Positions 28,794-60,774 are shown, counted from the first letter of the stretch. The stretch is 64,000 nucleotides of DNA from an uncultured Fibrobacteraceae bacterium (GCA_964607825.1 CAZSNA010000003.1:552-64551); one strand, 5' to 3'. A program made the numbers and translations. Notes: generated by a model from the letters alone, not told the origin.

Positions 28794-29468
28794 ATGAAAC
28801 ATGCCAACGTCATTTCCCTGATCATGGTGATCCTCGGCGCCCTCTGCCTGTTCGCGGGCGAGGCCGAGGCGATCATCGTCGATCTGGACGGCTTCGCGGT
28901 GGGCGCGGTGGTCGCGGGCGAGTCGCCCGACGGCACGCAGACCGCCGCCAACCTCTTCGAGGACTTCACCCTCGTCGTAGACAACTACGGGAACGGGCCG
29001 AACTCGCTGGTGGTCTGCGAATCCGTCGAGTTCATCGGACACGGCGACAAGAGCGCGGACAAGGGCCCTGGCAACGGCGGAGACCACATCATGATGATCG
29101 CCGGTAACGTCCTCGACCGGCGCCCCCCCGACGGCTTGGTGGACGACCCCGTCCACCAGCCGGAGGGCGGGTCTGTGGATGTGCTGTTCTCGGCGCCGGT
29201 GAACATGGCCTACGTCCTGCTCGACGTGACCGAAGCGGAAGGACTGACCTACAAGCTGATCGTGGATGGCGTGCCGACGGTGTCCGTGAGCGACGGCGCG
29301 CAGTGGGAGAACGGAGGGATCTTCATCGATCTGGACGGGTATCTGTCCGTCCAGACCATCCGCCTGGAACTGGGTGGCGGCGTCGGCATCGCGAGAATCG
29401 CGTACTTCCCGGAATCCGTGGCCGCGGAAGCGGCCTCGTGGGGCGCGGTCAAGACGATGTACAGGTAG
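28794..29468 (+). CDS. Small Sec-secreted protein of 224 aa ending in the decapeptide SWGAVKTMYR; a paralogue of 47448..48152
   Basis: RBS GGAGGAGGG, signal peptide 'LIMVILGALCLFAGEAEA', a mature N-terminus 'IIVDLDGF' and the shared C-terminal motif. Confidence 0.65.
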   Translation: MKHANVISLIMVILGALCLFAGEAEAIIVDLDGFAVGAVVAGESPDGTQTAANLFEDFTLVVDNYGNGPNSLVVCESVEFIGHGDKSADKGPGNGGDHIMMIAGNVLDRRPPDGLVDDPVHQPEGGSVDVLFSAPVNMAYVLLDVTEAEGLTYKLIVDGVPTVSVSDGAQWENGGIFIDLDGYLSVQTIRLELGGGVGIARIAYFPESVAAEAASWGAVKTMYR

Positions 29469-29605
29469 CGCCGGCCCATCATTGACAGGAAGAGCGGAGC
29501 CCCCCGCGGGATGCGGGGGGTTTCGCGTTGCTTGACCACAGCCATGCCAGCGCCGACAATGGCCGTCGAACCGACTCGACGGCCATGAAAGGAAGGGTCA
29601 CCGAC

Positions 29606-31273: not shown

Positions 31274-31444
31274 TCCCGGCGGCGCCCCGGTGCGCCGTCG
31301 CCGACGGCCGGCCGCAGATGGCGGGGTGCCGCTTCCGGGGCGGCCTGATAGAATGGTCAGGTTGCACGACCACCAGCCGATAACCGGACGAAGGCACCCG
31401 GAAGACGTTGCGCTCGCGAAACTTCGACAAGGCGGACGACGCCC

Positions 31445-34194: not shown

Positions 34195-34214
34195 GGTCGG
34201 TTCCCTCCGGGGAT

Positions 34215-34686: not shown

Positions 34687-35383
34687 ACGTCTTCTCCGGA
34701 TCGGAGGGATCCTCGTCGTACTGGGCGACGGTGCCGATGATCTTCGCAGGGTTGCCCACGGCGATCTCGCCCTCCCCCACGTCCTTGAGGATCACCGCGC
34801 CGATGCCGACGATGGCGTAGGCGCCGATGGTCACGTCCTCGCGCATGCTGCAGTTGGTGCCCAGGTGGGCGCCCTCGCCGATGAGACAGCGGGCGCCGAT
34901 CGCCGAGTTGTTGGCGACCCAGGCGAAGTCCTCCAGCCGGCTGTCGTGGCCGACGAAGGCGTTGCCGTAGAGGTGGTTGTGGTTGGCGACGACCGCGCCG
35001 AAGGAGAGGTTCACCTGGGCGCAGAGCAGCGAGCCATGGCCGATGCCCTCGGCGCCCGAGGTCTGGGTCGACGGGTGCACGAAGGTGGCGAAGGCCTCCC
35101 CGGGGATGCCCATCTCGCGGAAGCGGGCCAGACGCGACTTCGCGTACTTGGCGTTGCGCATGGCGTAGTGGACGAACACGCCCTGCTCGGCGAAGCCGGG
35201 GGCCTCGGCGGTGCGGCCGACCACCGGGTAGGCGCCGATCTCGGCGCCGATCTCCTCGACGTCGTTCAGGTAGCCGCGGATCTCCCACTCGGGCTCGTGG
35301 GCGTTGATGTCCTCGATCACCGAGGCGACTATCTGTCCCGATCCCAGGCCGCCCATGATGACGACCGGCTTCAATGCGCTCAT
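34682..35383 (-). CDS. Hexapeptide-repeat sugar N-acyltransferase (NeuD/PglD/WecD-like)
   Basis: N-terminal Rossmann-like 'VVIMGGLGSGQ', a C-terminal left-handed beta-helix of hexapeptide repeats, and a stop/start overlap with the GT2 gene. Confidence 0.8.
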   Translation of the reverse strand: MSALKPVVIMGGLGSGQIVASVIEDINAHEPEWEIRGYLNDVEEIGAEIGAYPVVGRTAEAPGFAEQGVFVHYAMRNAKYAKSRLARFREMGIPGEAFATFVHPSTQTSGAEGIGHGSLLCAQVNLSFGAVVANHNHLYGNAFVGHDSRLEDFAWVANNSAIGARCLIGEGAHLGTNCSMREDVTIGAYAIVGIGAVILKDVGEGEIAVGNPAKIIGTVAQYDEDPSDPEKTS

Positions 35384-36348
35384 ATGTCCTCTCTCGCGTC
35401 TGTCGTGTGCGTGGGCTGCGGCGGCGCGGACCCGCCGAGGCGGCGTCTGACGAAGAAGGCGGGGTTGCCCTCGGTGCTCTGTATGGCGCGCAGCAGGTAC
35501 TCCCCCATGATCCCCATGATCAGCATGATGGTGCCGCCCAGCAGCAGCAGGGTGGCCATCAGCGAGGCCCAGCCCTGGATGGGCACGTCCATCACCAGCT
35601 TCTGGTAGAGCACCACGAAGAACATCGCCAGGCTCAGGGCCGCGAGCCCCATGCCCAGGTAGGCGAACATGCGCAGCAGGAACGAGGAGTTGTTGATGAT
35701 CAGGTTGCTGAACAGCTTGATCATGCGGCCGAGCGAGTAGCCGCTCTGGCCGTCCTCGCGCGGCTGGTGGTCGATGTCGACGCCCACGATGTCCTTGCTG
35801 ACCTGGAAGAGCAGCGCCGGCATGAAGGGGTTCGGGGTGCGGAAGAGCTTGAGCCCCTCGGCGACGGTGCGGCTGTACAGGCGGAACGACGTGCTCTGCA
35901 GATGCTTGGGCTTGCCGATCAGCGTGTAGTCGAACCAACCCTTGAGCCAGCTCGTCGCGCGCTTGAAGACGTTGTGGCGCTTGCGCCGGAACTGGCCCAG
36001 CACGATGTCGTGGTCCGACGCGTCCAGGAACAGCGGGATGTCCTCGGGACGGTGCTGCAGGTCGTCGTCCATGGTCATCACGACGTCGCCCCGCGCCTCG
36101 GCGTTGCCGCAGAGGGTGGCCCCCTGCTGGCCGAAGTTGCGGGTGAGCTGAATGATCTTCACGCGCGGCCAGTCGTCGGCCACGGCTTCCAGCGCGGGCC
36201 AGGTGGCCGGGCTGGGCGAGCAGTCGTCGACGAAGATCAGCTCGTAGTCGTCGCCGGCGCGGTCGCGGAACACCGCGTCGACGCGGCGTGCGATCTCGGG
36301 CAGCGTCTTGGCGGTGTTGTAGACCGGGATGACGATCGAAACCAGCAT
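35380..36348 (-). CDS. GT2 polyprenyl-phosphate glycosyltransferase (ArnC/DPM1-like) with C-terminal transmembrane helices
   Basis: 'VSIVIPVYNTAKTLPEI', 'FVDDCS' and 'TMDDDLQHRPEDIP' (DxD/QxxRW-type), plus two C-terminal transmembrane segments. Confidence 0.85.
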   Translation of the reverse strand: MLVSIVIPVYNTAKTLPEIARRVDAVFRDRAGDDYELIFVDDCSPSPATWPALEAVADDWPRVKIIQLTRNFGQQGATLCGNAEARGDVVMTMDDDLQHRPEDIPLFLDASDHDIVLGQFRRKRHNVFKRATSWLKGWFDYTLIGKPKHLQSTSFRLYSRTVAEGLKLFRTPNPFMPALLFQVSKDIVGVDIDHQPREDGQSGYSLGRMIKLFSNLIINNSSFLLRMFAYLGMGLAALSLAMFFVVLYQKLVMDVPIQGWASLMATLLLLGGTIMLIMGIMGEYLLRAIQSTEGNPAFFVRRRLGGSAPPQPTHTTDAREDI

Positions 36349-47447: not shown

Positions 47448-48152
47448 ATGATCCGCTCCACCATTCTACTGCTGGTCTCGCTGCTGGCCGCGGCTCCCGC
47501 CGCCGCCGACATCATCCTGGACGTGGATTTCGAGGGGCAGCCCCTCGATCAGGTCATCGGCACGGGCGGCGCGGCCGCCGGGCAGCCCTACGACATCTAC
47601 AACTGCACCCCGATCGTGCGCGACGGGCCGATGGGCTCGTACTGCCTGGAGATCGAGGACATCGCCGACTTCGGCACGGGCAACGTGTTATTCGCATTCC
47701 TCGACGACGCCGAGATCGTCACCGGCACCGTCGAGATCGTCTGCGACCTCTGGTTCGACTACCTGGAGTTGTACCACTTCTACGTGCGCGAACAGGGCAG
47801 TTCCGGGCAGGAGTTCCTGACGGCCTACTTCCTCGATGGCGGCGCCGTGGCTTTCCACGACCAATCGGGCTTTGCGGGCTCCGCGACCTACGAGGTCGGC
47901 CGCTCCATCCGGCTGCGCGTCCTGTACGATATAGACGCGGGCACGTACGACCTGTGGTGGGACGGAACCCGGGTGATCACCGACCGCGCCCACGGCATCG
48001 TCGGCCGGGGCGTCGGCAGCATCATCGTGGGCACCGACCACGACGAGGATCTGGACGGCCTCTTCTACATCGACGATCTGCGGGTGGAGACGGACGTCTC
48101 GACGCCGACGACGGCCACGGACTGGGGTTCGCTGAAACTCCTCTGGAAGTAA
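47448..48152 (+). CDS. Small Sec-secreted protein of 234 aa ending in DWGSLKLLWK (lectin/jelly-roll-like body)
   Basis: RBS GGAGGAATCCC-ATG, signal peptide 'LLLVSLLAAAPAAAD', a mature N-terminus 'IILDVDFEG' and the shared C-terminal motif. Confidence 0.65.
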   Translation: MIRSTILLLVSLLAAAPAAADIILDVDFEGQPLDQVIGTGGAAAGQPYDIYNCTPIVRDGPMGSYCLEIEDIADFGTGNVLFAFLDDAEIVTGTVEIVCDLWFDYLELYHFYVREQGSSGQEFLTAYFLDGGAVAFHDQSGFAGSATYEVGRSIRLRVLYDIDAGTYDLWWDGTRVITDRAHGIVGRGVGSIIVGTDHDEDLDGLFYIDDLRVETDVSTPTTATDWGSLKLLWK

Positions 48153-48257: not shown

Positions 48258-48980
48258 ATGAAACGTGCGTGCCTCGCGGCCTGGTTGATCCTGGTCACGG
48301 CCGTGTACGTGCAGGCCGGAAAGACGCTGCAGGTGGAGCCCCTGTCCGGCGAGCCCACGACGGTTTCCGGCTTCGGCGTCATCACAGACGGCGACGACTG
48401 CCTCGTCGGCAACGACAACGGCGTCTTCTACGCGGTCCCCAACTGGATCTGGGGCGCCGAGACCTACACCTACCTCTTCGACCCCCTGGGCACCTGCGGC
48501 TGCGACGTCGGCTTCGAGATCGACGCCGTGCACATGATCGTGCAGTTCGGCGCGGAGGACGTGCCCCAGAGCTTCAACGCCTATGCTGAGGTGGGCGCGG
48601 CGGTCTGGAACGACCAGGCCATGCGCTGGGAGCCCGGCCCAGCCCACTGCACCGGCCCGGTCACCCAGATCGAGATCACCGACGCCGGCCTCTACGACAT
48701 CGTGCTGCCCGTGGACGACTGCGGCTGCATGGAGCTGGTCCACGACTACGCCATCTCCTTCAATCTCGTCGACTTCCTGGCCTCCAGCATCGACGCGGTC
48801 ACCGACGACGTTCCAGAACCCGGCTCGAGCTGGAACGACTACGGTCTGGGCTGGTTCGACCTGGTCCAGGACTTCGGCTACCCCGGCAACCTGCTGATCT
48901 GGGCCGACGCGGACTGCTGCGAGTCCCCGGTGGCCGGCGAGCCCGCGAGCTGGGGCGAGATCAAGTCCTACTACAGGTGA
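48258..48980 (+). CDS. Small Sec-secreted Cys-rich protein of 240 aa ending in SWGEIKSYYR
   Basis: RBS GAGGTAAG, a signal peptide, eight or more Cys (CGC, CGC and CC pairs) and the shared C-terminal motif. Confidence 0.65.
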   Translation: MKRACLAAWLILVTAVYVQAGKTLQVEPLSGEPTTVSGFGVITDGDDCLVGNDNGVFYAVPNWIWGAETYTYLFDPLGTCGCDVGFEIDAVHMIVQFGAEDVPQSFNAYAEVGAAVWNDQAMRWEPGPAHCTGPVTQIEITDAGLYDIVLPVDDCGCMELVHDYAISFNLVDFLASSIDAVTDDVPEPGSSWNDYGLGWFDLVQDFGYPGNLLIWADADCCESPVAGEPASWGEIKSYYR

Positions 48981-49268: not shown

Positions 49269-50357
49269 ATGAAGCGTCTTGCCTCGATCGCCCAGATCGC
49301 CCTCTTCGCCGTCCTTGTCCCGGCCTCGGCCGCGCCCGTCGCCGCCGAGCCGCTGACCAACCTGTTCATGCTCCACCATTCCACCGGACGCAACGTCATC
49401 GAGGAAGGCGACGTGCGCGGCTGGATCGACACCCACAACCTGTCCGAGGGCGCGGCCTTCGAGTTCTGGGACCACGACTACAACCACATCGGCCTGACCG
49501 GCCCCGACGGGACCAAGCTGGAGACGTCGTACGGCATCCCAGACGACAACACCGACCCCGACGGCCTGCTCACCCTGTGGACCACGCCCAACGACGCCCG
49601 CGACCAGATCCTCGCCAACCACGAGGTCATCGCCTTCAAGTCCTGCTACCCCGCCTCGGACATCGAGAGCGACACGGAGCTCGAGACGCGCAAGGCCTGG
49701 TACCTGGCCATGCGCGACGTCTTCGACCAGCACCCGGACAAGGTGTTCGTGGTCATGTCGCAGCCGCCGCTGCACCGGCTCAACACGAACAAGGACGCGG
49801 CCGACCGCGCCCGCGCCTTCGCGAACTGGCTCAAGTCGGACGCGTACCTCGCGGGCCACGACAACGTGGTGTGCCTCGACTTCTTCGACCAGTTCGCCGC
49901 GCCCGATGACGGCGCCGACACGGCGAACATGCTGCGCTGGGAGTACGAGCGCAGCCACTACAGTTCCGACTCGCACCCGAACACCCACGCCAACGAGATC
50001 GTGGGTCCGTGGTTCGCGGCGAAGCTGGTGGACGCGGCGTCGGCCCTCGACGCGGCCCTGACCGATGCGGGCGCGCCCCGTCTCGGCCTGGCCCTCGGCG
50101 CCCACCCGAACCCGTTCAACCCGCGGACGACCCTGTCGTTCACCCTGTCGGAGCCCGGCCCGGTCTCCCTGGCCGTCTACGACCTGACCGGCGCCCGCGT
50201 CGCCCTGCTGGCCGACCGCGTCTTCCCCGCCGGCGACCACGCCGTGAGCTGGGACGGCGGCGACGCCACCGGCCGCCCCCTCCCGTCCGGCGTCTACCTG
50301 GCGCGCGCGGCCACGCGCGACGCCGTGCAGACCCGCAGGATGACCCTCGTGCGCTGA
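49269..50357 (+). CDS. Secreted protein with a T9SS type-A C-terminal sorting domain and an N-terminal roughly 280-aa domain of unknown function
   Basis: Signal peptide and a C-terminal 'HPNPFNPRTTLSF...GVYLARAATRDAVQTRRMTLVR'. Confidence 0.75.
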   Translation: MKRLASIAQIALFAVLVPASAAPVAAEPLTNLFMLHHSTGRNVIEEGDVRGWIDTHNLSEGAAFEFWDHDYNHIGLTGPDGTKLETSYGIPDDNTDPDGLLTLWTTPNDARDQILANHEVIAFKSCYPASDIESDTELETRKAWYLAMRDVFDQHPDKVFVVMSQPPLHRLNTNKDAADRARAFANWLKSDAYLAGHDNVVCLDFFDQFAAPDDGADTANMLRWEYERSHYSSDSHPNTHANEIVGPWFAAKLVDAASALDAALTDAGAPRLGLALGAHPNPFNPRTTLSFTLSEPGPVSLAVYDLTGARVALLADRVFPAGDHAVSWDGGDATGRPLPSGVYLARAATRDAVQTRRMTLVR

Positions 50358-50429
50358 CGGATCACCCAGCGATCCGCACGAGCAGAAGCCCCGGCGACAG
50401 CGACCGCCGGGGCTTCGTCTGTATGGGGG

Positions 50430-51005
50430 TTAGCGGTAGAGGGCTTTAAGGGTGCTCCAGGTGACCGCTTCGACCGGATCCCAGATGCAGTCCGGGAAGC
50501 CGCCCATCGGATTCACGACCGCATCCGGCCAGCCGCCGCCGAACCTGCGGTGCAGGAGCACCAGCCCGTTCTGATCGTCCACGTATTCGAAGTGGTCCAT
50601 CCCGTCCGGGAGGCGGAGGTAGAATGAGACCGGGGCCGTATCGGCGGTGACGACGAGCCCCATCCGGAGCAGCAGGACCATCTCCTCGTGCACGGGGTCA
50701 CCGGTGCATGACAGCTCATAGGTCGAGCCTCCGTCTCCGTCGACCCAGCCGTCCATCACCTCGGGATCTCCGAAGTAGCCGACCGTGGTCTCGATCTCGA
50801 ACTCGAACGAGACGGCGGTCACAGGCCGGGAGGGCATGTAGATCGCGACGTAGACGTCGATCAGCTGGAATGGCGCCGAGTATGCGCAGGCCCACGGCAG
50901 AGCCGGATCGAGCGTGACGACGAACATGTCCGCCGCGTGGGATCCCGACTCATCGAACGGAACGAGACAGAGCACGATGAACAGTGCGGCGATCGCGCGC
51001 CTCAT
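50430..51005 (-). CDS. Small Sec-secreted protein of about 191 aa ending in TWSTLKALYR
   Basis: Signal peptide 'RRAIAALFIVLCLVP' and the shared C-terminal motif. Start at the second ATG, which has a GGAAAGG RBS. Confidence 0.6.
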   Translation of the reverse strand: MRRAIAALFIVLCLVPFDESGSHAADMFVVTLDPALPWACAYSAPFQLIDVYVAIYMPSRPVTAVSFEFEIETTVGYFGDPEVMDGWVDGDGGSTYELSCTGDPVHEEMVLLLRMGLVVTADTAPVSFYLRLPDGMDHFEYVDDQNGLVLLHRRFGGGWPDAVVNPMGGFPDCIWDPVEAVTWSTLKALYR

Positions 51006-51063
51006 GTGATCCATACCTTTCCGGGCGATATGATCCGAGTATACGGAAACCCCGCCCCGCCGT

Positions 51064-51330
51064 CTACCGGGCCGCCAACCCCGCGATCACCAGCAACAGC
51101 GCCAGGTTCATCCCGATCACGAAGTGGTAGAACAGCGGTCCCACGCTGCCCGTCTCGGCCTGCGTGAGCACACGGTAGCGATGCACGTACTTGATCAGAT
51201 AGAGCCTGAGGAAGACGAAGCTGATCTTCTCGCCGCGCATCTTCAGCCAGGCGACGATGCGGATGCTCGAGGCGATCCCCCAGATCGCGCTGAGCAGGGC
51301 GAGGGTGAGGAAGGTGTTGCTCGTGTTCAT
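51064..51330 (-). CDS. Small hypothetical membrane protein (88 aa, two or three transmembrane segments)
   Basis: Hydrophobic segments 'FLTLALLSAIWGIASSI' and 'FVIGMNLALLLVIAGLAA'. Sits directly downstream of the AsnB-like gene. Confidence 0.45.
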   Translation of the reverse strand: MNTSNTFLTLALLSAIWGIASSIRIVAWLKMRGEKISFVFLRLYLIKYVHRYRVLTQAETGSVGPLFYHFVIGMNLALLLVIAGLAAR

Positions 51331-51385
51331 GACCGGTCTCCGGTTGTGGGGTTCCGGAGACCAGTACGTGTTCGGAGAGCTTGTG

Positions 51386-53248
51386 TTACCCCGCCCGTGC
51401 GTCGAGGAACTGGCTGAGCGTGAACTCGGGTTCCGCGCCCGGATCCGTCTCGTAGAAGAGCACGTGCCACAGGTCGAGGGTCACCAGCTGCAGGATGCGC
51501 GTGGCGTTGGCCGGCACGTCGTCGAACAGGGCGGCCAGGGGCTCGCGGCGGCAGAGGTCGTCCAGGTAGGGCGAGGCCAGCACGCCGCGGCGTACGCGCG
51601 CCAGGAACGTCTCGTCCAGCAGGTGGATCAGGGGGTTGATGGCGCCGCCCTGCTTGGGGCGATCGACGATGTCCTCTTCCAGCAGCTCGTAGCAGAGACG
51701 CCTGTGCAGCGCCTTGTAGGTGAAATCCTCGGGCGACTCGGGCGGCGCGTGGAAGCGCAGCAAGGTGTCGAGGGCCAGGATGTGGTCGGCCACCGCGCGG
51801 TTGCAGAAGGGCGAGAAGGTCTCCAGGCCGAGCAGGTCGCCCAGGCGGCCGTTGATCTGCAGGATGCCGTGGCAGGCGTAGTCGCGGTTGAGGACGGTGC
51901 AGCCGAAGTCGTAGAGGGCCTCCAGGTCGGTGTGCGGCAGGCCGGTCAGGGGGTAGCGGTCGTCCTCCGGTAGGGGGCGGCGCAGCAGGGCGGCCAGGTC
52001 GCAGTCGCGGAAACCGTAGCGGCCGCACCAGTAGGCCGGGTCGTACGGGGCGACCAGCTTGTTCTCCACCTTGCGCGCGAAGACGTTGTGGCGGCCCAGG
52101 GGCGAGCGGGCCAGTGTGCGCACGCCGACCAGGGCGGGCTCGAGAAGAGGGCCGTACTTGCGCCGCGCAGCCGCGCGGCGACGCACCGGCGCTACGCTGG
52201 CGCCGAAGAGCTGGTCGGCGGTCTCCCCGCCCACCACGGTCTTGACCTTCTCGCCCGCCAGGGACAGGGCGCACCAGGAGAGCATCATGCCCGGCTCGTA
52301 GAAGGGCTGCTCCGAGGCGTGCACCAGGCGCGGGAGCTCCTCGATCTCGGCGCCCTCGACCAGGCGCTCGGTGTGGTCGGTGCCGTAGCGCTCGGCCACG
52401 CGGCGGGCGTAGGGGGCGTCGGTGTGGAAGTCGGTCGAGGCGATGCCGAAGGTGGGCAGCGGACGGTCGGTGCACTCGGCCGCCAGGGCCACCAGGCTGC
52501 TGCTGTCCAGGCCGCCGCTGAGCAGGAAGCCGCAGTCGGGGTCGTGGTCCATCCAGTCGGCGACCGCGCCGGTGAGGATCTCGCGGTAGTCGGCGTAGGC
52601 GGTCTCGGGGTCGGTGATCTTCTCGGCGGGACGGGTCCAGCCGTCGAAGACCTCGACGCGCGTGCGGCCGTCCTCGACCGTCAGGCGCTCGCCGCAGCCG
52701 AGCTGCTTCACGTCGGCGTAGATGGTGCGCGGCGGGGTGGTGTAGGTGTCGGCCAGGTAGTGGTGCAGGGCGCGGTCGTCGAGCCGGGCGCGCGAGCCGG
52801 GGCTGAGCCGCAGCAGCGGCTCGATGCGGTCGGACAGGTAGAGGTAGCCGTCTCGCTCGAGGTGGTAGGCGGTGGTGATGCCCGGGAAACGGTCCTGCAG
52901 CATGAGAGTGCGGTTGCGGGCCACGTCGCGGATGAAGGCGACGCAGTGGCCGTCGAGCCGGTCGGCGAAGTCGTCGCCCAGGGTCGCGTAGAGGTGCAGC
53001 AGGGCGCGGGGGTCGTCGGCGGCCAGTCCATCGGGGAGCTGTTCGAGACAGCCGGTGATCCGGCCCCAGGCGCAGGCCACCACGCCGTCGGCCGCGGCCA
53101 CGGCCGGGGCGACGTCGCGGGCGCCGAGCAGGGCCGCGTCCTCGTCGGCGTGCAGGACGGAGGAACCGCCCAGGGGGTCGACGTCGAGGTTGCCGGGCTT
53201 GGGCCGGTCGCGGTCGAGACGGATGATGGCGACGAAACGGGCGGACAT
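51386..53248 (-). CDS. Asparagine synthetase (AsnB)-family ATP-dependent amidotransferase homologue lacking the N-terminal Cys nucleophile
   Basis: PP-loop 'LLSGGLDSSSLVALA' and an AsnB C-terminal domain. The N-terminus 'MSARF' replaces 'MCGI', so the glutaminase Cys is absent. Confidence 0.75.
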   Translation of the reverse strand: MSARFVAIIRLDRDRPKPGNLDVDPLGGSSVLHADEDAALLGARDVAPAVAAADGVVACAWGRITGCLEQLPDGLAADDPRALLHLYATLGDDFADRLDGHCVAFIRDVARNRTLMLQDRFPGITTAYHLERDGYLYLSDRIEPLLRLSPGSRARLDDRALHHYLADTYTTPPRTIYADVKQLGCGERLTVEDGRTRVEVFDGWTRPAEKITDPETAYADYREILTGAVADWMDHDPDCGFLLSGGLDSSSLVALAAECTDRPLPTFGIASTDFHTDAPYARRVAERYGTDHTERLVEGAEIEELPRLVHASEQPFYEPGMMLSWCALSLAGEKVKTVVGGETADQLFGASVAPVRRRAAARRKYGPLLEPALVGVRTLARSPLGRHNVFARKVENKLVAPYDPAYWCGRYGFRDCDLAALLRRPLPEDDRYPLTGLPHTDLEALYDFGCTVLNRDYACHGILQINGRLGDLLGLETFSPFCNRAVADHILALDTLLRFHAPPESPEDFTYKALHRRLCYELLEEDIVDRPKQGGAINPLIHLLDETFLARVRRGVLASPYLDDLCRREPLAALFDDVPANATRILQLVTLDLWHVLFYETDPGAEPEFTLSQFLDARAG

Positions 53249-53373
53249 GGTCGGCCGTCCTTCGGTTGAGGGCGCGTTGGGCACACCATTACATCATCGG
53301 CGGGGATGGGGGAAGCTTGGGTTGTTTTCGGGTGGGGGGTTCGTGGTATCGCAGGTCGATTCCACAAATACAT

Positions 53374-53389
53374 GGTCCCACGTGGGACC
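53374..53389. repeat. Perfect 16-bp palindrome GGTCCCACGTGGGACC followed by GTGGTTTT
   Basis: Seen in sequence. Confidence 0.8.
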
Positions 53390-53486
53390 GTGGTTTTATG
53401 GGATCGTGAGTCGTTGCAGGTACACTTCGTAGTGATGTCGGTGGGTGGCCACCTATCGCACTTGATCTGTGTACTCATAGTCAAAT

Positions 53487-53510
53487 CCACACCACCACGT
53501 GGTGGTGTGG
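53487..53510. repeat. Perfect 24-bp palindrome CCACACCACCACGTGGTGGTGTGG
   Basis: Seen in sequence. Confidence 0.8.
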
Positions 53511-53573
53511 AATTGAGGATTCATATGGCGTATGTGATTCGCCCCTGGATATAGATGTCGGTTCGACAAAACC

Positions 53574-53593
53574 ACGGTCCCCCGGGGGACCGT
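53574..53593. repeat. Perfect 20-bp palindrome ACGGTCCCCCGGGGGACCGT; on the minus strand it is followed by GGTTTTGT, so it is probably the amidohydrolase terminator
   Basis: Seen in sequence. It shares the GGGACCGTGGTTTT half-site with the palindrome at 53374. Confidence 0.75.
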
Positions 53594-53642
53594 TTTCCTG
53601 TGGATAACCTCGGGGGCCCGGATCCGCTCGCCGCTACGGACC

Positions 53643-55283
53643 TCACCGGATTCGCCGCCCCTCCACCACCACCGCCGCCGCATGCGTCGTCAGCCACGCC
53701 CGCGGATCCTGCCGCGGGTCGTCCGCCAGCACCGTGCAGTCGAAGACGTATCCCGGCGACAGCCGGCCCAGCTCCCCCTCGCGGCCCACCGCGTAGGCGG
53801 CGGCCTCGGTGAACCCGCGCACCGCCTCCTCCCAGTCGAGACGCTGCTCGGGATACCAGCCGCCGGCCGGCTGCTCGTCGGCGTCCTGGCGGGTGACGGC
53901 CGCCCAGACGCCCGGCAACGGATTCCAGTCCTCGACCGGCGCGTCGGAGCCGAAGGGGGTGGGTACGTCCAGCACGGCGAAGGTGCGCCAGGCGTAGGCG
54001 CCCTTCACGCGCTCGGGGCCGACGCGGTCCTCGGCCCAGCGCATGTCGCTGGTGCAGTGGGTGGGCTGCATGCTGGCGATGGCGCCGAGCTTCACGAAGC
54101 GGGAGAAGTCGTCGGGGTGGACGACCTGGGCGTGCTCCACGCGGTGGCGGCGCAGCGGGTTCACCTCGCCGCGCTGGGCGTGGGCGATGGCGTCGAGGGC
54201 CATGCGGTTGCCGGCGTCGCCGATGGCGTGGATCGCCGTCTGGAAGCCGCGGCGGTGCACCTCGGCCACACGGTCGGACAGGGTTTCGGGGTCGGTGACG
54301 GGCAGGCCGCGGTGGCCGGGCTCGTCGCTGTAGTCGGCGAGCAGCAGGGCGCCGCGGCTGCCCAGGGCGCCGTCGGCGTAGTACTTGACGCCGCGCACCT
54401 CGTAGAGGGCGCCGCCGCGGTGGGTGCCGAGCACCTCGAAGGTGCGCTCGTGGCTGCCCTCGAGGTAGCCGAAGAGACGGATGGGCAACAGTCCGCGATC
54501 GGCCAGGTCCTGGGCGATGGCGGCCACCGCCGGCACCTGCCCCATGTCGTGGACGGCGACCAGCCCCGCGTCGGCGCAGGCCTCGAGTCCAGCCAGCAGC
54601 CAGCGCTCGCGCTCGGCCAGGGTGGGGTCCGGCAGGACGGGATCGAGCAGGTCGATGGCGTTGTCGATCAGCACGCCCGTGGGATTCCCCAGATCGTCGC
54701 GCATGATGCGGCCGCCCGCGGGGTCGGGCGTGTGGCGGTCGATGCCCGCCAGCTCGAGCATGGCGCGGTTCAGCCAGGCGGCGTGGCCGTCCACGCGCCG
54801 CAGGTAGACGGGTCGCGCGGTGACGCCCTCCAGATCCTCCCAGGTCGGGAACGCGCCTCCGGGCCAGCGGCTCTGGTCCCAGCCGCGGCCGCGGATGATG
54901 CGCACCTCGGGGCGGTTCAGCGCCCACTCGCGGACGGTCTGCGCGGCTTCGGCCGTCGAGGCCGCGTCGTTCAGCACGACCTGTTCCTTCAACCGGCCGA
55001 TGCCAGAGACATGCAGGTGGGCGTCGTGCAGGCCGGGCAGCGCCAGCTCGCCGGGCAGGCGCACGATCTCCCAGGGCGTGTCCCTGGGCACCACGCCGTA
55101 GAGCTCGAGCACGCGGTGGTCGCGGTCGACGGCGACGGCCTTGGCCACCGGGAAGGCCGGGTCGCCGGTCCAGAAGTCGGGGCCGGCGTAGATGCGGACG
55201 GCCGTGTCGGTGTCCTCGGGGGCCGGTTCGTCGGCGAGGGCGACGGCGGCGAGCATCGTGACGATCGCAAGGGCGCGGAACAT
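53643..55283 (-). CDS. Secreted metal-dependent amidohydrolase (Amidohydro_3 family)
   Basis: Signal peptide, 'HDAHLHVSG' metal-binding His motif, and 'HAIGDAGN', 'HAQ' and a C-terminal 'SDAP' typical of the amidohydrolase TIM barrel. Confidence 0.8.
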   Translation of the reverse strand: MFRALAIVTMLAAVALADEPAPEDTDTAVRIYAGPDFWTGDPAFPVAKAVAVDRDHRVLELYGVVPRDTPWEIVRLPGELALPGLHDAHLHVSGIGRLKEQVVLNDAASTAEAAQTVREWALNRPEVRIIRGRGWDQSRWPGGAFPTWEDLEGVTARPVYLRRVDGHAAWLNRAMLELAGIDRHTPDPAGGRIMRDDLGNPTGVLIDNAIDLLDPVLPDPTLAERERWLLAGLEACADAGLVAVHDMGQVPAVAAIAQDLADRGLLPIRLFGYLEGSHERTFEVLGTHRGGALYEVRGVKYYADGALGSRGALLLADYSDEPGHRGLPVTDPETLSDRVAEVHRRGFQTAIHAIGDAGNRMALDAIAHAQRGEVNPLRRHRVEHAQVVHPDDFSRFVKLGAIASMQPTHCTSDMRWAEDRVGPERVKGAYAWRTFAVLDVPTPFGSDAPVEDWNPLPGVWAAVTRQDADEQPAGGWYPEQRLDWEEAVRGFTEAAAYAVGREGELGRLSPGYVFDCTVLADDPRQDPRAWLTTHAAAVVVEGRRIR

Positions 55284-55293
55284 CGGGATCCTC

Positions 55294-56919
55294 CTAGTAG
55301 GGCAGATCGGTCTGCAGGCTGTCCACCTGCGCCTCCGGCAACCGGAACTGCTCCGGCCGCAACCGCAGCACGTCGCGCAGCCAGTCCTCGGGATAGCCGA
55401 CCTCCTCGGCGTGCCCGTCGACGCGCACGTACCCGTCGTTGTAGCGGGTGATCAGCGCGCCGGCCAGCTCGCGCCAGCGCTCGAAGACCCGCTCGCCGGT
55501 CGACACCGAGTAGGTGGTGAGGTACTGCGCGGCCAGGGCGGGGTCGCGCTCGAACAGGTCGGCCGCGGTGCGCTCCACCGCGGGCGCCATGGCGTCGAGG
55601 TCCGCCTCCAGCTCCGACTGGGCGGCGCGGATGTCGTCGATCATGTAGTCGTACTTCAGCGCGGCGTAGTTGGCGACCAGGTTGAACATCCACCAGGCCG
55701 AGTCCCAGGAGAACTCGGAGAGACGGCCGGTGGCGAAGGACGGCGGGATGTCCGTGACGCCGGCGTAGAGCGGGGTCCAGACCGTGGTGTAGGTGTCGTC
55801 GACGCCGTACCAGAGGCAGCCGCCGACCGGGTCCGGCAGGTCGCGGCGGGACTGGGCGATCATGGAGAAGCCGGTCTGCTGGGTGGAGATGGGGCGCTCC
55901 CAGGTGTACTTGGCGCCGTCGAGTTCGAAGCCCATCGGGCGCCAGCGGTTGGGATTGCCGAAGGGGCCGGCGTCCACGCCGGCGGTCATGTCGAAGTCGG
56001 TGTCCTCGTAGTGGTCGCGCATCAGGGCGCGCACGTCGGCGAGCGAGAGCTTCGCGTCGGGCTTCACCCACAGGGGGTAGTCGACGGTGCCGGGGGCGCC
56101 GCGGTGGAAGTCGGGCGACAGCTCGAGCGACGGCGCGGCGCGGCGCAGCAGGCTCCACACGCGCGTCGAGGTGTAGCGCTTCTTCTGGGGCGTGGCGGGA
56201 TCGTAGACGTCGCGGAAGTTGAAGGGCGCGCCCGCGTCGGGATCGTACCAGCCGTTGGCGATCGCCACCTCGAACACGTTGTCCGAGTAGAGCGTGTGCT
56301 TGTCGTCCGTGGGAAACTCGCCGATGCGCGCCATGTTCGCGTGGGCGCTGACCAGGCCGTCGGGCACCCGGCGCGCCACCCAGACCGCGCCGATCTCGTC
56401 GGCGCCGCAGCCGATCATCTCCAGGATCCACACCTCGCGCGGGTCGCAGATGGAGAACGACTCGCCGGTGGAACGATACCCGTGCTCCTCGACCAGCGAG
56501 GTGATCACCTCCACCGCCTCGCGCGCCGTGCGCGAGCGCTCCAGGGCGAGCTTCATCAGCGTCCAGTAGTGCAGCAGCGCCGAGGTGTTCTGCAGCTCGA
56601 GCCGCCCGTCGAAGGTGGTCTCGCCGATGGCCACCTGGTGCTCGTTCATCAGGTTGACGTAGGCGTAGGTGTGCGGCACCTGGGGGATCTCGCCGTGGAT
56701 GTTCCCGTCCCAGTGTCGGATCACGTACATCGACCCCGGCTCGTGGTCGGCGGCGTCGTTGCGGCGCAGCGTGGCGTGGAAGACGCCGTCGCAGGTGTAG
56801 GTGACGTAGGCCGAGCCGTCGACCGTGGCGCCGGGGGTGACCAGGAGGTTGGTGCAGGCGGCGGCGGGGGCGGCCAGGGCGAGCAGGGCGAGAGCGAGAC
56901 CCGGGATGGCTCGAATCAT
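55294..56919 (-). CDS. C69-family dipeptidase (Ntn-hydrolase, N-terminal Cys nucleophile after the signal peptide)
   Basis: Signal peptide 'LALALLALAAPAAA' followed by 'CTNLLV', with a peptidase C69-like body. Confidence 0.75.
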   Translation of the reverse strand: MIRAIPGLALALLALAAPAAACTNLLVTPGATVDGSAYVTYTCDGVFHATLRRNDAADHEPGSMYVIRHWDGNIHGEIPQVPHTYAYVNLMNEHQVAIGETTFDGRLELQNTSALLHYWTLMKLALERSRTAREAVEVITSLVEEHGYRSTGESFSICDPREVWILEMIGCGADEIGAVWVARRVPDGLVSAHANMARIGEFPTDDKHTLYSDNVFEVAIANGWYDPDAGAPFNFRDVYDPATPQKKRYTSTRVWSLLRRAAPSLELSPDFHRGAPGTVDYPLWVKPDAKLSLADVRALMRDHYEDTDFDMTAGVDAGPFGNPNRWRPMGFELDGAKYTWERPISTQQTGFSMIAQSRRDLPDPVGGCLWYGVDDTYTTVWTPLYAGVTDIPPSFATGRLSEFSWDSAWWMFNLVANYAALKYDYMIDDIRAAQSELEADLDAMAPAVERTAADLFERDPALAAQYLTTYSVSTGERVFERWRELAGALITRYNDGYVRVDGHAEEVGYPEDWLRDVLRLRPEQFRLPEAQVDSLQTDLPY

Positions 56920-57518
56920 GGACGTTCTTCCTCCGTCGTGGGTTTCAGGGGACGAATCAGGCCCAGAAGAGGACGGTAGTCGTGGTCGTCGGCCGAACGC
57001 AAGGCGGATATGTAGACGCCGCGATCGAGATTCCAATCCAGCATGGCGCATCCGTTGTAGTGGAGCAGCAGATTCGCAGCCAACCGCGCATGTCGCCCGT
57101 TTCCGTTCGAGAACGGATGGACCTGCGCCAAGCGGTGATGGAAACGGATCGCCCGCTCGGTCCAGGGATACGATTCGAACTCGTTCCAGCTCATCACGTC
57201 TGCGCAGAGTAGTGCGAGGCGCTCGGGGATCGATCTCCAATCGACGCCGATGTTGAGATCGTGCGTCCGGAAGACGCCCGCCCACGTCCAGACCCGGTCG
57301 AACATCATACGATGGAGCCTGCAGAGTCCCGGCGGCGTCAACAGCGATCGCCGCAGGCGCCGATCGTTGACGGCCGCGACCCGTGCGGACAGGATGTTCT
57401 CCGCCTCGACCTCGTTCAACTCGGTACGCGACGTGATGTGCGGTATCAACCCGGACAGGTCGTCACGATGGATGGGTGTCGTTCCCGGCTCCGTATCGCG
57501 CACTACTCCGATTCCCAT
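56916..57518 (-). CDS. Fic/DOC-family protein ('mobile mystery protein B' type)
   Basis: Fic motif 'HPFSNGNGRHARL', and a 16-nt overlap with the upstream helix-turn-helix gene. Confidence 0.75.
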   Translation of the reverse strand: MGIGVVRDTEPGTTPIHRDDLSGLIPHITSRTELNEVEAENILSARVAAVNDRRLRRSLLTPPGLCRLHRMMFDRVWTWAGVFRTHDLNIGVDWRSIPERLALLCADVMSWNEFESYPWTERAIRFHHRLAQVHPFSNGNGRHARLAANLLLHYNGCAMLDWNLDRGVYISALRSADDHDYRPLLGLIRPLKPTTEEERP

Positions 57519-57973
57519 AGCTTGGCGGGGGTGTCCTGCAGCAACCGGGCCGTCAGTTCCTCGCGCATGCGCGCGAGCTCCGCATCGTCCACTCCCTGGT
57601 CCTCGAGCTCCATGGTGGCCGAAACGTCGCGGATGCGCTTCTCGGCCAGCCGGGCGGCGCGGCGTCTGACCAGTTCGACATAGGAGCCGCTCTCGGGTAT
57701 CAAGACGTATTCCAGGCGACACCCCAACTGGCTCGCCACTCGGTTCATGGTTTTCAGGGTCACAGCCCCGTCCGCCTCAGCCTTCTCGATCCGCTGCAGC
57801 GACTGGGGCTTGATGTCGAGCCGTTTCGCCAGCTGGGCCTGCGTCATGCCCAGGATCTCCCGAACATGCTTCATCCAACCGATCGGGGGCCGATCGAGAG
57901 CATGCGAACCGATCAGCGGGGAAATCCTTCTATCCATTTGCATTCGCGCCAGTTGCAATGATTTACGCAGCAT
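57503..57973 (-). CDS. XRE-type helix-turn-helix protein ('mobile mystery protein A' type)
   Basis: 'ILGMTQAQLAKRLDIKPQSLQRIE' forms the helix-turn-helix. RBS GGAGG sits 9 nt upstream of the ATG. Confidence 0.7.
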   Translation of the reverse strand: MLRKSLQLARMQMDRRISPLIGSHALDRPPIGWMKHVREILGMTQAQLAKRLDIKPQSLQRIEKAEADGAVTLKTMNRVASQLGCRLEYVLIPESGSYVELVRRRAARLAEKRIRDVSATMELEDQGVDDAELARMREELTARLLQDTPAKLWESE

Positions 57974-58089
57974 GGGGCAGCCCTCCAATCAGCATTTGTG
58001 CTGTTTCACACCCCTAAAAAACAAGCATATATGCTGCCACTGTCAAGATATAATTCGCATTTATACTGTAATTTAACCGTGCAGCTGTG

Positions 58090-58134: not shown

Positions 58135-60774
58135 TCATTTCACCATCGTCATCTTCCGGATCAGCTCCTCGTCGTCGGTGCGCAGCACGTAGAAGTAGGC
58201 GCCCGAGGACACCCGCCGTCCGCGATCGTCCGCGCCGTCCCAGACGATCTCGTGTTCGCCGGCCGGACGCGTCGCCGAGAGCAGGTCGCGCACGAGGCGG
58301 CCGCGCTCGTCGTAGACCTTCAGGCTCACACGGCCGGCGGCGGCCAGGGCGTAGGCGATCTTCGTGGTCGGGTTGAAGGGGTTGGGCGAGTTCTGCGCCA
58401 GGCGCGTGACCCGCGGCGTGTCGTCGATGCCGGTCGCCACCACCTCGGTCGACGCGCTGGCCATGGCCACCGGCGCGGCGCGGCCCTGGTTGACCCAGGC
58501 GTCGTAGAGCTGCTGCCCGGCCGCGACGTCCGGATCGTTGTCGCGCAGGAACTCGATGAACTCCTTGCTGGTGGTCTGGTAGTACAGGGTGACCACGACG
58601 CTGGTCGCGTCGCCCGGCAGCTCGTAGACCGTCTCGTCCCAGTACTGACCGTCGGCATAGCTGTAGGCCACCGGCGGCGACTGGATCGTCGTGAAGGCGG
58701 CGTTGGTGAAGCCGCGCGGCGGGATGCGGTTGTCGAAGTAGACGGTGTCGTTGAGCGCCATGTTGAACGACGGCCCCGACGACACGCCGAGGATCCCCGC
58801 CAGACGCTCCGACCGGCCGGGCTTGATCTCGTAGATCTTCGCGTCCTCGTCGTGGGTGAGCACGCCGGTCGAGGCCTCGTAGGCGCCCGACTCGTACACC
58901 GGCTGCATGGCGTCGTCGTAGGCCTTCACGTTCAGCCAGACGCGGCGGCCCTCCGGATAGCCCGAGGGCAGCTTGTGGCCGGTCTCGTTGGTCACGGTGA
59001 CCCGGACGGCGGGCACGCCGCTGCCGACGATCTCCTCCACCTCCAGCGAGGCCGCCCGCTGCAGCATGCTGATGGCCCGGGCCTTGCCGCCGTCCAGGGC
59101 GGCCTGGTCGACCTCGAGGGGATAGTAGTCGGCCAGGATGTCGGGGATGAAGTGGTTGCCGCCGGTGAAGTCGTGCACGCCGATGTCGTCGCGGGTCGGG
59201 CCGCCGGCGGCGCCCTTGCCGGACTCGTCGGGCATGTGGCAGTCCTGGCAGGTCGACACGATGCCGTCGGGCTTGTTGCCGGCGAACTGCGGCGCGTAGA
59301 CGCCCGTCGCGGCGTACTCGCTCTCGCTCCACTCGCTGAAGGTGCGCTCCACCGGGAACATGTTGCGCCGGTCGCTGTCGGGGTGGGGCGCGTCGAGGGC
59401 CTGCACGACGTACTCGTCGGGCGTGGCGCCGGCGACGAAGACCGGGTTGCTCACGTCGTGGCAGGTGCCGCAGATCCCGGAGCTGAGGGTGAAGTCCGAG
59501 TGGGCGAACTGGTGGTCGGCCTGGGCGTCGGCGTAGGGGCCGCGCCGCAGGGGATCGGGATCGGTGACGAACTGGCCGTTGGCGTTGTCCAGCGGGATGG
59601 ACTCCAGCTCGGCCAGGATGTCCTCGTCGCCGGGCGGGTTGTCGCCGACCTGGTAGTGCACGTCCACGGCGCTGTGGCAGAAGTCGCACTGCACGCCCTG
59701 GCGGTCCTTGGCGTTGATCATGCCGCCGGTGGTGTCGGTGGAGCGGCCCTCCTGCCAGCCGCCCGGCGAATGGCAGCGCAGGCAGAGGTCGCCGCCGCCC
59801 GGGGCCGAGGCGTCGGTGATGCGCACCAGGGACAGGTAGAGCGGGTCGCGCATGGTGTTGCCCATCATGCTGCCGCGCCAGTTGTACCAGGGCTCGGTGA
59901 GGGTGCTGTGGTCGCCGTGGCAGGTGGCGCAGGTCTCGGCCGGGTCCTCGAGGACGGCGCCCTCGAGCGGCTGGGTGCCGGGCATCTCGAAGTCGCGCAG
60001 CGAGGTCGGGACGATGGCGCCGGCGACGGGATCGATGGTGAACGTCGCCGGGCTCTCGCCGTAGCCCTCGTTGCCCGCGTAGTCGTAGGCCTCGACCCGG
60101 ATCAGGGCGTTCGGGCCGGGATAGTTGTGCACGAACCAGTCCCACGCGCCGTCGTTGGGCAGGTCGACGGCGATGGGCTGCCACGACGCGCCCCCGTCCT
60201 CGCTGAACTCGATCTCGATCCTGGCGACGCCCGTGTCGTCGGTGGCGGTCCAGGAGATGGTCGTGACGGTGTTGGCCCCGAAGACCTCGCCGCCGAGCGG
60301 CGCCAGCAGGGTGACGACCGGGTCGACCTCGTCGGGTGCGCCCTCCGGCGTGAGGTAGGGGTCGAGGTCGGCCGTGTCCACGTTCAGGACCAGCCCCACG
60401 TTGTCCGCCTTCAGCCCGGGGAAGGTGGGCGTGTTGGCGTAGTTGACGACGTCCGTGATCTCGACGAGGTTGCTGAAGCCGTCATTGTCGGAGTCGTCGT
60501 TCTCGATGGCGAGGATCGCCTCCGAGTTGCTCAGCCCGTTGTTGAGCCCCACCTCGATGCCGACGCCGTAGGGGTTGCGCGGTCCGCCGCCGTCGAAGTC
60601 GAAGTGGCAGAGGCCGCAGTGGGACGTGCTGCTGGGCACGTCGTCGAGCTGGGTGAACTCGGCCACGGGATAGGTCGTGAAGAAGGTGCGGCGGATGGGA
60701 TTGCGGGCGAGGGCGGACGCGGCCAGGGCGACCACGAGCACGAACGCGACGGAGACGGCGAGGGGGCGACGCAT
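58135..60774 (-). CDS. Six-heme c-type cytochrome with a T9SS type-A C-terminal sorting domain (secreted, 879 aa)
   Basis: Six CxxCH motifs (CGLCH, CATCH, CLRCH, CDFCH, CGTCH, CQDCH), a signal peptide, and a C-terminal 'SPNPFNPTTKIAY...GAYFYVLRTDDEELIRKMTMVK'. Confidence 0.8.
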   Translation of the reverse strand: MRRPLAVSVAFVLVVALAASALARNPIRRTFFTTYPVAEFTQLDDVPSSTSHCGLCHFDFDGGGPRNPYGVGIEVGLNNGLSNSEAILAIENDDSDNDGFSNLVEITDVVNYANTPTFPGLKADNVGLVLNVDTADLDPYLTPEGAPDEVDPVVTLLAPLGGEVFGANTVTTISWTATDDTGVARIEIEFSEDGGASWQPIAVDLPNDGAWDWFVHNYPGPNALIRVEAYDYAGNEGYGESPATFTIDPVAGAIVPTSLRDFEMPGTQPLEGAVLEDPAETCATCHGDHSTLTEPWYNWRGSMMGNTMRDPLYLSLVRITDASAPGGGDLCLRCHSPGGWQEGRSTDTTGGMINAKDRQGVQCDFCHSAVDVHYQVGDNPPGDEDILAELESIPLDNANGQFVTDPDPLRRGPYADAQADHQFAHSDFTLSSGICGTCHDVSNPVFVAGATPDEYVVQALDAPHPDSDRRNMFPVERTFSEWSESEYAATGVYAPQFAGNKPDGIVSTCQDCHMPDESGKGAAGGPTRDDIGVHDFTGGNHFIPDILADYYPLEVDQAALDGGKARAISMLQRAASLEVEEIVGSGVPAVRVTVTNETGHKLPSGYPEGRRVWLNVKAYDDAMQPVYESGAYEASTGVLTHDEDAKIYEIKPGRSERLAGILGVSSGPSFNMALNDTVYFDNRIPPRGFTNAAFTTIQSPPVAYSYADGQYWDETVYELPGDATSVVVTLYYQTTSKEFIEFLRDNDPDVAAGQQLYDAWVNQGRAAPVAMASASTEVVATGIDDTPRVTRLAQNSPNPFNPTTKIAYALAAAGRVSLKVYDERGRLVRDLLSATRPAGEHEIVWDGADDRGRRVSSGAYFYVLRTDDEELIRKMTMVK

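Follow-up and report, generated by a model that had tools for sequence, protein, structure and literature searches.

Homologues of asparagine synthetase B (AsnB) that have lost glutaminase activity have repeatedly been found with unusual amide chemistry, such as the formation of beta-lactams, carbapenams and lasso knots. A further protein of this kind is encoded in a 64,000-nt stretch of DNA with 68% GC from an uncultured Fibrobacteraceae bacterium (CAZSNA010000003.1:552-64551; hereafter the window), as part of a three-gene locus on the minus strand (50430-53248) that also comprises the genes of an 88-aa membrane protein and of a secreted protein ending in a short C-terminal tag. On balance, residue conservation and gene context lead us to lean towards the view that the AsnB-like protein is an active enzyme that would adenylate a carboxylate at the expense of ATP and form an amide without glutamine, and that it acts on its own, the tag protein being a neighbour and not its substrate.

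The best solved-structure match of the enzyme is TsnB9 (7ylz; profile E = 1.7e-29, fold E = 1.5e-21), an AsnB-like hydroxyamidotransferase with a non-standard nitrogen donor. TsnB9 keeps a working N-terminal nucleophile (Ntn) domain; it is 17-19% identical to the window enzyme, with a profile alignment mainly over residues 80-390, and the window offers no polyketide context. Asparagine synthetase B itself (1ct9, human ASNS) has PF00733, the PP-loop, the equivalents of D238, D351, K429, K449 and E348, and the fold in common with the clade of the window enzyme, whereas its Cys1, Arg49, Asn74 and Glu76 are lost in the clade, E352 is replaced by Q, and Y357 by C or S. Beta-lactam synthetase and carbapenam synthetase (1jgt/1mc1 and 1q15/1q19) are also glutaminase-dead, and after adenylation of a carboxylate they form an amide with no need of glutamine. 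Their folds match that of the window enzyme (Foldseek E ~3e-20 and 1e-16, TM ~0.56-0.7), as do their profiles over the N-terminal half (E 2.4e-16 and 2.1e-9), but identity is 14-18%, the window enzyme is ~120 residues longer, and no clavam or carbapenem pathway genes were found near it. Cyclases of lasso peptides (NF033535) and of albusnodin/ikarugamycin-type macrolactams (NF033561) are Cys-less AsnB-like enzymes as well, which form isopeptide or lactam bonds via acyl-AMP; no precursor, B protein or transporter of such systems was found near the window enzyme.

The AsnB-like enzymes WbpS, WbqG and PGN_1234 (TIGR03108 type) turn uronic acid sugars into uronamides, and in P. gingivalis the uronamide product is the linking sugar that carries type IX secretion (T9SS) cargo, amide-bonded through its C-termini (PMC7468200). 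Comparable clusters of exosortase, deacetylase and asparagine synthase genes have been described (PMC7468200). These enzymes share the superfamily and the two-domain architecture with the window enzyme; they keep Cys1 and use glutamine, whereas its clade does neither. No exosortase, EpsI, exopolysaccharide (EPS) glycosyltransferase or Wbp genes were detected near the enzyme among the window's open reading frames (ORFs) scanned, and the association with exosortase and EPS genes is confined to a distant clade member, P0132.

The AsnB-like protein and its clade

The AsnB-like gene (51386..53248, minus strand) codes for 620 aa, with a degenerate Ntn-like N-terminal domain and an intact PP-loop synthetase domain. 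All three minus-strand ORFs that the initial annotation had placed at the locus are present, and their third-position GC of 0.94 (AsnB-like), 0.87 (88-aa) and 0.83 (tag protein) makes all of them look coding. The AsnB-like ORF is open from 53293, with GTG 53284 as the sole possible start earlier than ATG 53248. An in-frame TGA is located 16 codons 5' of this ATG, and no start codon between the two would supply a Met-Cys N-terminus. Database homologues begin at the equivalent Met, and GAAGGA is found 9-14 nt 5' of the ATG. The product begins with MSARF and carries SGGLDSS at residues 244-250.

According to Pfam, the protein matches PF00733 (Asn_synthase) alone, with E = 1.5e-40 and 140.4 bits against a gathering cut-off of 21, over residues 233-607 of the 632-aa translation that starts at the GTG; no GATase domain was found by Pfam. 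This match and the conserved PP-loop confirm membership of the AsnB superfamily with an intact PP-loop synthetase half, as first proposed. Six AsnB-type NCBIfam models were matched, and none reached its curated cut-off. The best is TIGR01536 (asparagine synthase; 126 bits vs a cut-off of 267), followed by TIGR03108 (XrtA/PEP-CTERM amidotransferase; 115 vs 817), TIGR03104 (N-acetylglutaminylglutamine amidotransferase; 99 vs 570), NF033535 (lasso peptide cyclase; 56 vs 525), PRK09431 (AsnB; 55 vs 499) and NF033561 (albusnodin/ikarugamycin-type macrolactam cyclase; 52 vs 300). With every score far below its cut-off, the protein does not belong to the named Cys-less or exosortase-associated families to which it had been likened. 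Asparagine synthase models were likewise matched weakly by all of the 13 clade members scanned, with a best E-value of 2e-43.

In a collection of 5.8 billion proteins, 16 close clusters at 90% identity were recovered, after which the score falls from 417 to 220 bits and canonical enzymes starting with MCGI follow. Searched exhaustively with HMMER, a set of 1.84 billion representatives yielded 62,444 superfamily members. Only about ten of these, full-length or nearly so, reach at least 540 bits, and a second tier of ~655-aa proteins follows at 277-375 bits; not one of the first- and second-tier sequences read has Cys at position 2. In a neighbour-joining tree, the clade is monophyletic and stands on a long stem apart from 21 canonical enzymes. 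The tree and the score gap both place the protein outside the bona fide asparagine synthetases, among which the initial annotation had allowed that it might cluster. We assign it to a small, monophyletic, unnamed and uncurated clade, whose members come from organisms with 37% to 72% GC; it is a new uncurated variant inside a well-known kind of enzyme.

P0141, P0144-P0148, P0151, P0153, P0155, P0160 and P0161 represent further uncharacterised Cys-less AsnB-like groups. Members of the ~655-aa tier start with M.RG.FGI and keep a GEIYN-like motif, RGPD being absent. Others start with MYGIFG, MSTIFG or MHGIFG, where Cys is replaced by Tyr, Ser or His. To judge from these N-termini, loss of the nucleophile is evidently frequent in the AsnB superfamily.

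For the comparison of catalytic residues, 20 full-length clade members and 21 canonical enzymes were aligned to E. coli AsnB, whose numbering is used here (the reference sequence is identical to PDB 1ct9 over residues 2-553). Thr322 and Arg325 of E. coli AsnB were considered as catalytic residues but not used; the validated numbering gives Thr and Ala there. Cys1 is present in 0/20 clade members vs 21/21 canonical enzymes, Arg49 in 0/20 vs 20/21, Asn74 in 0/20 vs 20/21, and Glu76 in 3/20 vs 20/21, and the motifs RGPD and NGEIYN are missing in the clade. The synthetase half presents S234-G-G-x-D238-S-S, D351, K429 and K449 in essentially all 20 clade members (one has S239T), G347 in 19 of them, and E or D at position 348 in every one. 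The clade has accordingly lost its glutaminase machinery altogether, whereas that of the ATP-pyrophosphatase (adenylation) half is unchanged. Because the protein has no N-terminal Cys and no alternative start could provide one, a role as glutamine-hydrolysing amidotransferase is impossible, and the statement of the initial annotation that it cannot hydrolyse glutamine holds for the clade as a whole.

The AlphaFold2 (AF2) model of the protein has a pLDDT of 92.5, and its full-length Foldseek matches include 7ylz, 1mc1, 1ct9 and 1q15. Of the PDB entries, TsnB9, beta-lactam synthetase, human and E. coli ASNS, and CarA match best, at 14-19% identity. The model predicts the two-domain AsnB fold, with an Ntn-like N-terminal domain and a synthetase domain.

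Other positions of the clade are changed with the same regularity. E352, which is E in 21/21 canonical enzymes, is Q in 20/20 clade members; Y357, also invariant in the canonical set, is C, S or A in all 20; position 387 is K or R in 16/21 canonical enzymes and mostly I, P or A in the clade; and a Pro-Gly pair (P319-G320) stands in place of the usual Ser/Ala. Given the clade-invariant changes at 352 and 357 and the missing basic side chain at 387, the acyl substrate is probably something other than aspartate. These changes also bear on the idea that the protein is a housekeeping asparagine synthetase which has dispensed with its glutaminase domain and depends on ammonia. AsnB Cys1 mutants keep ammonia-dependent activity, all adenylation residues are retained here, and the best NCBIfam match is indeed TIGR01536. 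That match scores half of its cut-off, however, positions invariant in canonical enzymes are altered clade-wide, the distribution is tiny and patchy, two relatives (P0015 and P0016) have disrupted copies, and one (P0132) lies within an EPS operon, so that we consider a housekeeping role quite unlikely.

An inert pseudoenzyme with a scaffold or regulatory role would agree with an N-terminal domain that is certainly dead and with the decay of some copies. Against it, members with 34-47% identity from organisms with 37-72% GC invariably retain the PP-loop, both aspartates that bind Mg, Lys429 and Lys449, and have E or D at the position of Glu348. Such invariance in divergent members is the pattern expected from selection for catalysis, and we regard the loss of all activity as decidedly improbable.

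Gene context of the enzyme and the C-terminal tag

The neighbourhoods of eleven relatives of the enzyme were read. That of P0001 (100% identity) is as in the window, and the same holds for P0006 and P0007 (61%), where the enzyme is followed by the 88-aa gene, a ~192-aa tag gene, a reversed FlgD_ig gene, two tag genes and nuoA. In P0003 (67%), the gene after that of the enzyme codes for 195 aa, and an 88-aa gene was not called. P0004 (64%) is syntenic, with Peptidase_C69, Amidohydro_3, the enzyme, the reversed FlgD_ig gene and nuoA; the three tag genes close by are all missing, as is the 88-aa gene, while the enzyme is intact and synteny is otherwise perfect. A sibling place with the same P0004 gene (L084) holds a 51-residue remnant of a tag gene's N-terminus between FlgD_ig and nuoA, which indicates that the tag genes were deleted there while the enzyme stayed intact.

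Beyond these relatives, the context changes. In P0009 and P0015 (50%; P0015 57% over 29% of the query), the stop of Amidohydro_3 and the start of the enzyme gene overlap by 4 nt, and a reversed FMN_bind gene lies downstream; P0016 (47%) shows the same overlap with an unrelated gene downstream. P0010 (47%) is a lone gene with divergent and convergent neighbours (DUF3373/cytochrome, and rml and GT4 genes), P0014 (41%) follows a DUF4397/Por_Secre_tail protein, P0134 (44%) is a lone opposite-strand gene within a [FeFe]-hydrogenase/HydEFG cluster, and P0132 (34%, from a 37% GC organism) lies within an exosortase EPS operon. The most conserved upstream neighbour in the window's lineage is Amidohydro_3, which adjoins the enzyme in L083, L215, L090, L092 and L217 and overlaps it by 4 nt in the last three. 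Only in the P0001, P0006 and P0007 lineages do all three genes of the locus occur together. Reading the neighbourhoods against the neighbour-joining tree, we posit that the 88-aa and tag genes were gained in the ancestor of one sub-branch and partly lost later, with the enzyme persisting throughout.

Two relatives carry damaged copies of the enzyme gene. P0015 (L090 8001-9254) has a ~200-residue internal deletion in which the PP-loop is gone, and it was found on three contigs. In P0016 (L092 8001-9831), seen on one contig, a frameshift divides the gene, and an assembly error is possible.

The 88-aa gene (51064..51330, minus strand) lies directly 3' of the enzyme gene, and its product has hydrophobic segments at residues 7-29 and 63-88, in keeping with the two-transmembrane protein that had been annotated. 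The copies found at the same place in L089 and L215 are 64% and 57% identical. No Pfam, NCBIfam or PADLOC match was obtained for this protein, and a homology search with it returned itself only; its homologues came from reading the loci of the enzyme's relatives. The gene is missing in P0004 and in more distant relatives, and it appears to be co-inherited with the enzyme in one sub-branch only.

The third gene (50430..51014, or from an alternative ATG at 51005; minus strand) codes for a protein of 191/194 aa with a signal-like N-terminus and the C-terminal end TWSTLKALYR. With 25-30% identity to its positional counterparts in L089 and L215, it evolves much faster than the 88-aa protein. The pattern W[GS]x[LIVMA]Kxx[YWF][RK]-stop terminates four ORFs of the window, and it was found at 0 ORF ends in the control set of 80 loci around ordinary AsnB genes (23-38% identity), ~1.4 Mb of unrelated sequence. 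The other three are on the plus strand, at 47448..48152 (end DWGSLKLLWK; signal-like N-terminus), at 48258..48980 (SWGEIKSYYR), and at 28794..29468 (SWGAVKTMYR), the last ~22 kb from the enzyme. The four proteins have 190-240 aa and a signal peptide each, and share just the last ~15 residues.

Outside the window the tag is widespread. The codon-level pattern WGx[VI]KxLYR-stop matched at least 120 metagenome contigs from soil, sediment and rhizosphere, with GC of 0.52-0.75; 116 of the 120 contigs listed (L095-L214) carry an ORF of at least 50 aa with the tag at its end, and frequently two to four such ORFs share a contig. Apart from the tag, these small proteins with signal peptides are unrelated. 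The consensus extends to C..(A/V)TP....(S/T)WGx(V/I)KxLYR, with a Cys and a (T/S)P motif often 10-20 residues before the tag ([ST]W[GS]x[VIL]Kxx[YW][RK]-stop). Its hydrophobic positions (W, I/V, L-Y) are found at helical spacing, and the tag differs from PEP-CTERM and LPXTG signals in that no transmembrane helix follows the motif. No Pfam or NCBIfam model matched the tag, and searches of a literature library for the motif and for sorting signals yielded nothing relevant to it. When three enzymes of the clade, the 88-aa protein and Amidohydro_3 served as tblastn queries, no match was obtained in the 120 listed tag contigs (490 kb). The tag is a widespread, apparently undescribed C-terminal motif, and a much wider phenomenon separate from the enzyme.

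Large secreted proteins with C-terminal domains of the FlgD_ig/Por_Secre_tail type are encoded at 23552-27580 (+), 49269-50357 (+) and 58135-60774 (-) of the window; an S8 peptidase and a multihaem/Big_7 protein are among them, and their C-termini read ...RKMVLVK, ...RRMTLVR and ...RKMTMVK. At least one tag contig (L112) encodes a large protein with such a domain as well. The organism seems to have two C-terminal signals, a T9SS-like domain of ~80 aa and the tag of ~10 aa.

The initial annotation had proposed, as a speculation, that the tagged proteins, or else a small peptide, are substrates of the enzyme, their free C-terminal carboxylate being adenylated and then amidated or ligated, with the 88-aa protein as a membrane partner. 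The three genes are adjacent on one strand between hairpins, the arrangement is repeated in L089 and L215, and no more than 4 kb separates the enzyme from three of the four tag genes of the window, all of which would agree with this idea. A 64%-identical intact enzyme nevertheless persists in the P0004 lineage without the 88-aa gene and the three tag genes, of which the remnant in L084 is left, five other lineages have the enzyme and no tag gene within 5-22 kb, and no copy of the enzyme was detected on any of the listed tag contigs. The four tagged proteins are exported via signal peptides, which the enzyme lacks. In the window, the tag gene is preceded by its own promoter-like site, and in L215 by a 185-nt, AT-richer gap. 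In addition, the documented link between T9SS and the AsnB family acts on an anchor sugar and not on the protein (PMC7468200). The annotation had itself named missing genomic co-occurrence as an observation that would speak against a partnership; the association proved to be confined, locally, to one sub-lineage, and as far as the loci and contigs examined can tell, the partnership with the tag is not supported. The placement of the enzyme beside a tagged protein looks like a chance of local gene order. We consider modification of the tagged C-terminus very unlikely.

Proposed function and substrate

In the reading that we favour, the cytoplasmic two-domain enzyme works alone, encoded in most lineages by a lone gene or by a gene that follows the one for a secreted Amidohydro_3 protein. 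It would bind ATP-Mg and activate a carboxylate as the acyl-adenylate, which would then be resolved to an amide. The nitrogen for this step would have a source other than glutamine, either free ammonia or an amine group in the substrate or in a co-substrate. The N-terminal domain might serve as a scaffold or as a substrate-binding module, like that of beta-lactam synthetase and lasso cyclases. The 88-aa membrane gene and the fast-evolving secreted tag genes would have been added downstream in the sub-lineage of the window.

As to the substrate, our favoured guess, to which we attach low weight, is a carboxylated sugar of the envelope or some other envelope or EPS precursor; this is the weakest step of the explanation. 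It derives from P0132, whose exosortase EPS locus also encodes glycosyltransferases and a WbpS-like amidotransferase, and from the convergent rml and GT4 genes beside P0010; the TIGR03108-type enzymes, which bear on C-terminally sorted proteins by way of the anchor glycan, are the documented precedent. The P0132 cluster, tight and on the same strand, encodes the exosortase EpsH, EpsI, GT2 and GT4 glycosyltransferases, the Cys-less enzyme, a further GT4, a canonical AsnB (725 bits on TIGR03108), an MBOAT/DltB-like protein, an ATP-grasp ligase, a weakly acetyltransferase-like protein and a polysaccharide deacetylase. P0132 itself scores 135 bits on TIGR03108, and the TIGR03108-like enzyme is one gene away from it.

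In a more elaborate version, the enzyme and the co-inherited 88-aa protein of the window's sub-lineage would together be a membrane-associated, glutamine-independent module that builds or modifies an envelope anchor for the proteins with FlgD_ig C-terminal domains and/or WGxIKxLYR tags. The anchor might be, for example, a uronamide or an aminoacyl sugar, and the module a functional analogue of WbpS in T9SS anchoring. If this were true, the clade would represent a new biochemical class of AsnB-like sugar-carboxylate ligases; we regard it as unlikely.

A set of genes of the Arn type (lipid A aminoarabinose-like) is located at 29528-36348 of the window and comprises PMT_2 (ArnT-like), a DegT aminotransferase, an EamA-family small transporter and a GT2, interleaved with an HpcH/HpaI aldolase and a MaoC dehydratase. 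It lies ~15 kb off the enzyme, and there is no sign of linkage.

Several observations weigh against a stand-alone, active enzyme with an envelope substrate. The gene contexts are heterogeneous, with a tight and informative operon in one of about nine, namely that of P0132, which is 34% identical, and the rml/GT4 neighbourhood of P0010 is merely convergent. For all members, both activity and substrate are read from residue conservation and context. The damaged copies P0015 and P0016 imply that the function of the enzyme is dispensable in some lineages, where it could be decaying. The tag contigs are mostly short (median ~2.5 kb), which still leaves room for a partnership at the genome level. 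Three of the four tag genes of the window are close to the enzyme, each within 4 kb. Finally, the 88-aa gene is always found 55-58 nt downstream of the enzyme in the window's sub-lineage, and its product has diverged at the same rate (57-64% identity vs 61% for the enzyme), so that it is a real gene and a possible partner within that sub-lineage. A real, membrane-linked partnership of the two could therefore be underrated by the stand-alone view.

The clade is one of many uncharacterised Cys-less branches of the AsnB superfamily, and nothing ties it to a new biological system. Cleanly delimited, its adenylation site intact and its acceptor pocket remodelled, it is nevertheless a reasonable target for enzymology, which the past record of unusual amide chemistry among glutaminase-dead AsnB homologues makes worthwhile. 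The value of the analysis is mostly negative, in that an unsupported link between enzyme and tag is removed and attention moves to the tag, which we consider the more interesting lead of the two.

Layout of the locus and neighbouring genes

Within the three-gene unit, spacers of 55 nt (enzyme to 88-aa gene) and 49 nt (88-aa gene to tag gene) separate the genes, and hairpins bracket the unit on both sides. On the upstream side, a secreted Amidohydro_3 protein (YtcJ-like; PF07969 at 2e-90) is encoded at 53643..55283 on the minus strand. Directly after its stop, a terminator-like hairpin with the core GGTCCCCCGGGGGACC and a T-run (53574..53593, minus strand) separates it from the AsnB-like gene in the window genome. 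On the downstream side, a 12-bp G+C-rich hairpin was read at 50385..50416, between the convergent tag and FlgD_ig genes; it has no clear T-run and is a probable two-way terminator. The one consensus promoter-like site in the region (51066-51038) is located in the second spacer, just 5' of the tag gene, and the tag gene may for this reason also be transcribed from a promoter of its own.

The 394-nt leader 5' of the AsnB-like gene (53374-53593 region) contains three perfect palindromes, GGTCCCCCGGGGGACC, CCACACCACCACGTGGTGGTGTGG and GGTCCCACGTGGGACC, the last of which (53374..53389, minus strand) is also terminator-like. The 64%-identical relative in L083 (9694-10000) has versions of these palindromes with compensatory changes, GGTACCACGTGGTACC and CCACATCACC...GGTGATGT, which suggests that they may be conserved hairpins or protein-binding sites. 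The pattern GGTCCC-N4-GGGACC occurs at just two sites in the whole window, both of them in the leader. Rfam gave zero matches at the gathering threshold over the whole window, rRNA and tRNA included, and the leader palindromes correspond to no described RNA family.

The leader region also bears on the idea that the enzyme is a cyclase of the lasso or macrolactam type, acting on a small precursor of a ribosomally synthesized and post-translationally modified peptide (RiPP) encoded nearby. Cys-less AsnB homologues do include lasso and macrolactam cyclases, and NF033535 and NF033561 were matched weakly, but at scores ~10x under their cut-offs. The enzyme's neighbours are Amidohydro_3, Peptidase_C69, HTH/Fic, the two-transmembrane protein and secreted proteins, with no PqqD-like or transglutaminase-like B protein among them. 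The sole sizeable intergenic gap holds no plausible short ORF: at 53255-53640, only overlapping or out-of-frame ORFs of the precursor type were seen, none of them conserved, and in relatives this gap is reduced to the 4-nt overlap. Several lineages, moreover, have the gene as a monocistronic unit between opposite-strand genes. The precursor peptide and B1/B2 protease which the initial annotation had advised looking for were thus not found near the enzyme, and we deem a RiPP cyclase extremely improbable.

Two further candidates were dropped. A 9-bp hairpin (GGTCTCCGG-N10-CCGGAGACC, 51335-51362) stops 4 nt short of the ATG of the 88-aa gene and would mask the Shine-Dalgarno sequence GGAG; neither L089 nor L215 conserves this hairpin, and it is probably not a regulatory element. 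A defence system was considered as well, and PADLOC gave no match for the three proteins.

An HTH_3 and Fic gene pair is located at 56916-57988 (-) of the window and recurs at L090 5309-6362, L215 3564-4573 and L088 68-1118. It lies before Peptidase_C69 in the window and in L215 and between Peptidase_C69 and Amidohydro_3 in L090, and it is absent from L083; in its changing position the pair behaves like a mobile module of the toxin-antitoxin type, as far as these loci indicate. Long antisense ORFs run alongside most genes of the window, as expected at 68% GC. One such pair is formed by 27576-28790 (+) and 27660-28748 (-), and of a 630-aa ORF with the fourth tag, only the part from 28794 onward is real, the 5' two-thirds of the ORF being antisense to a minus-strand gene.

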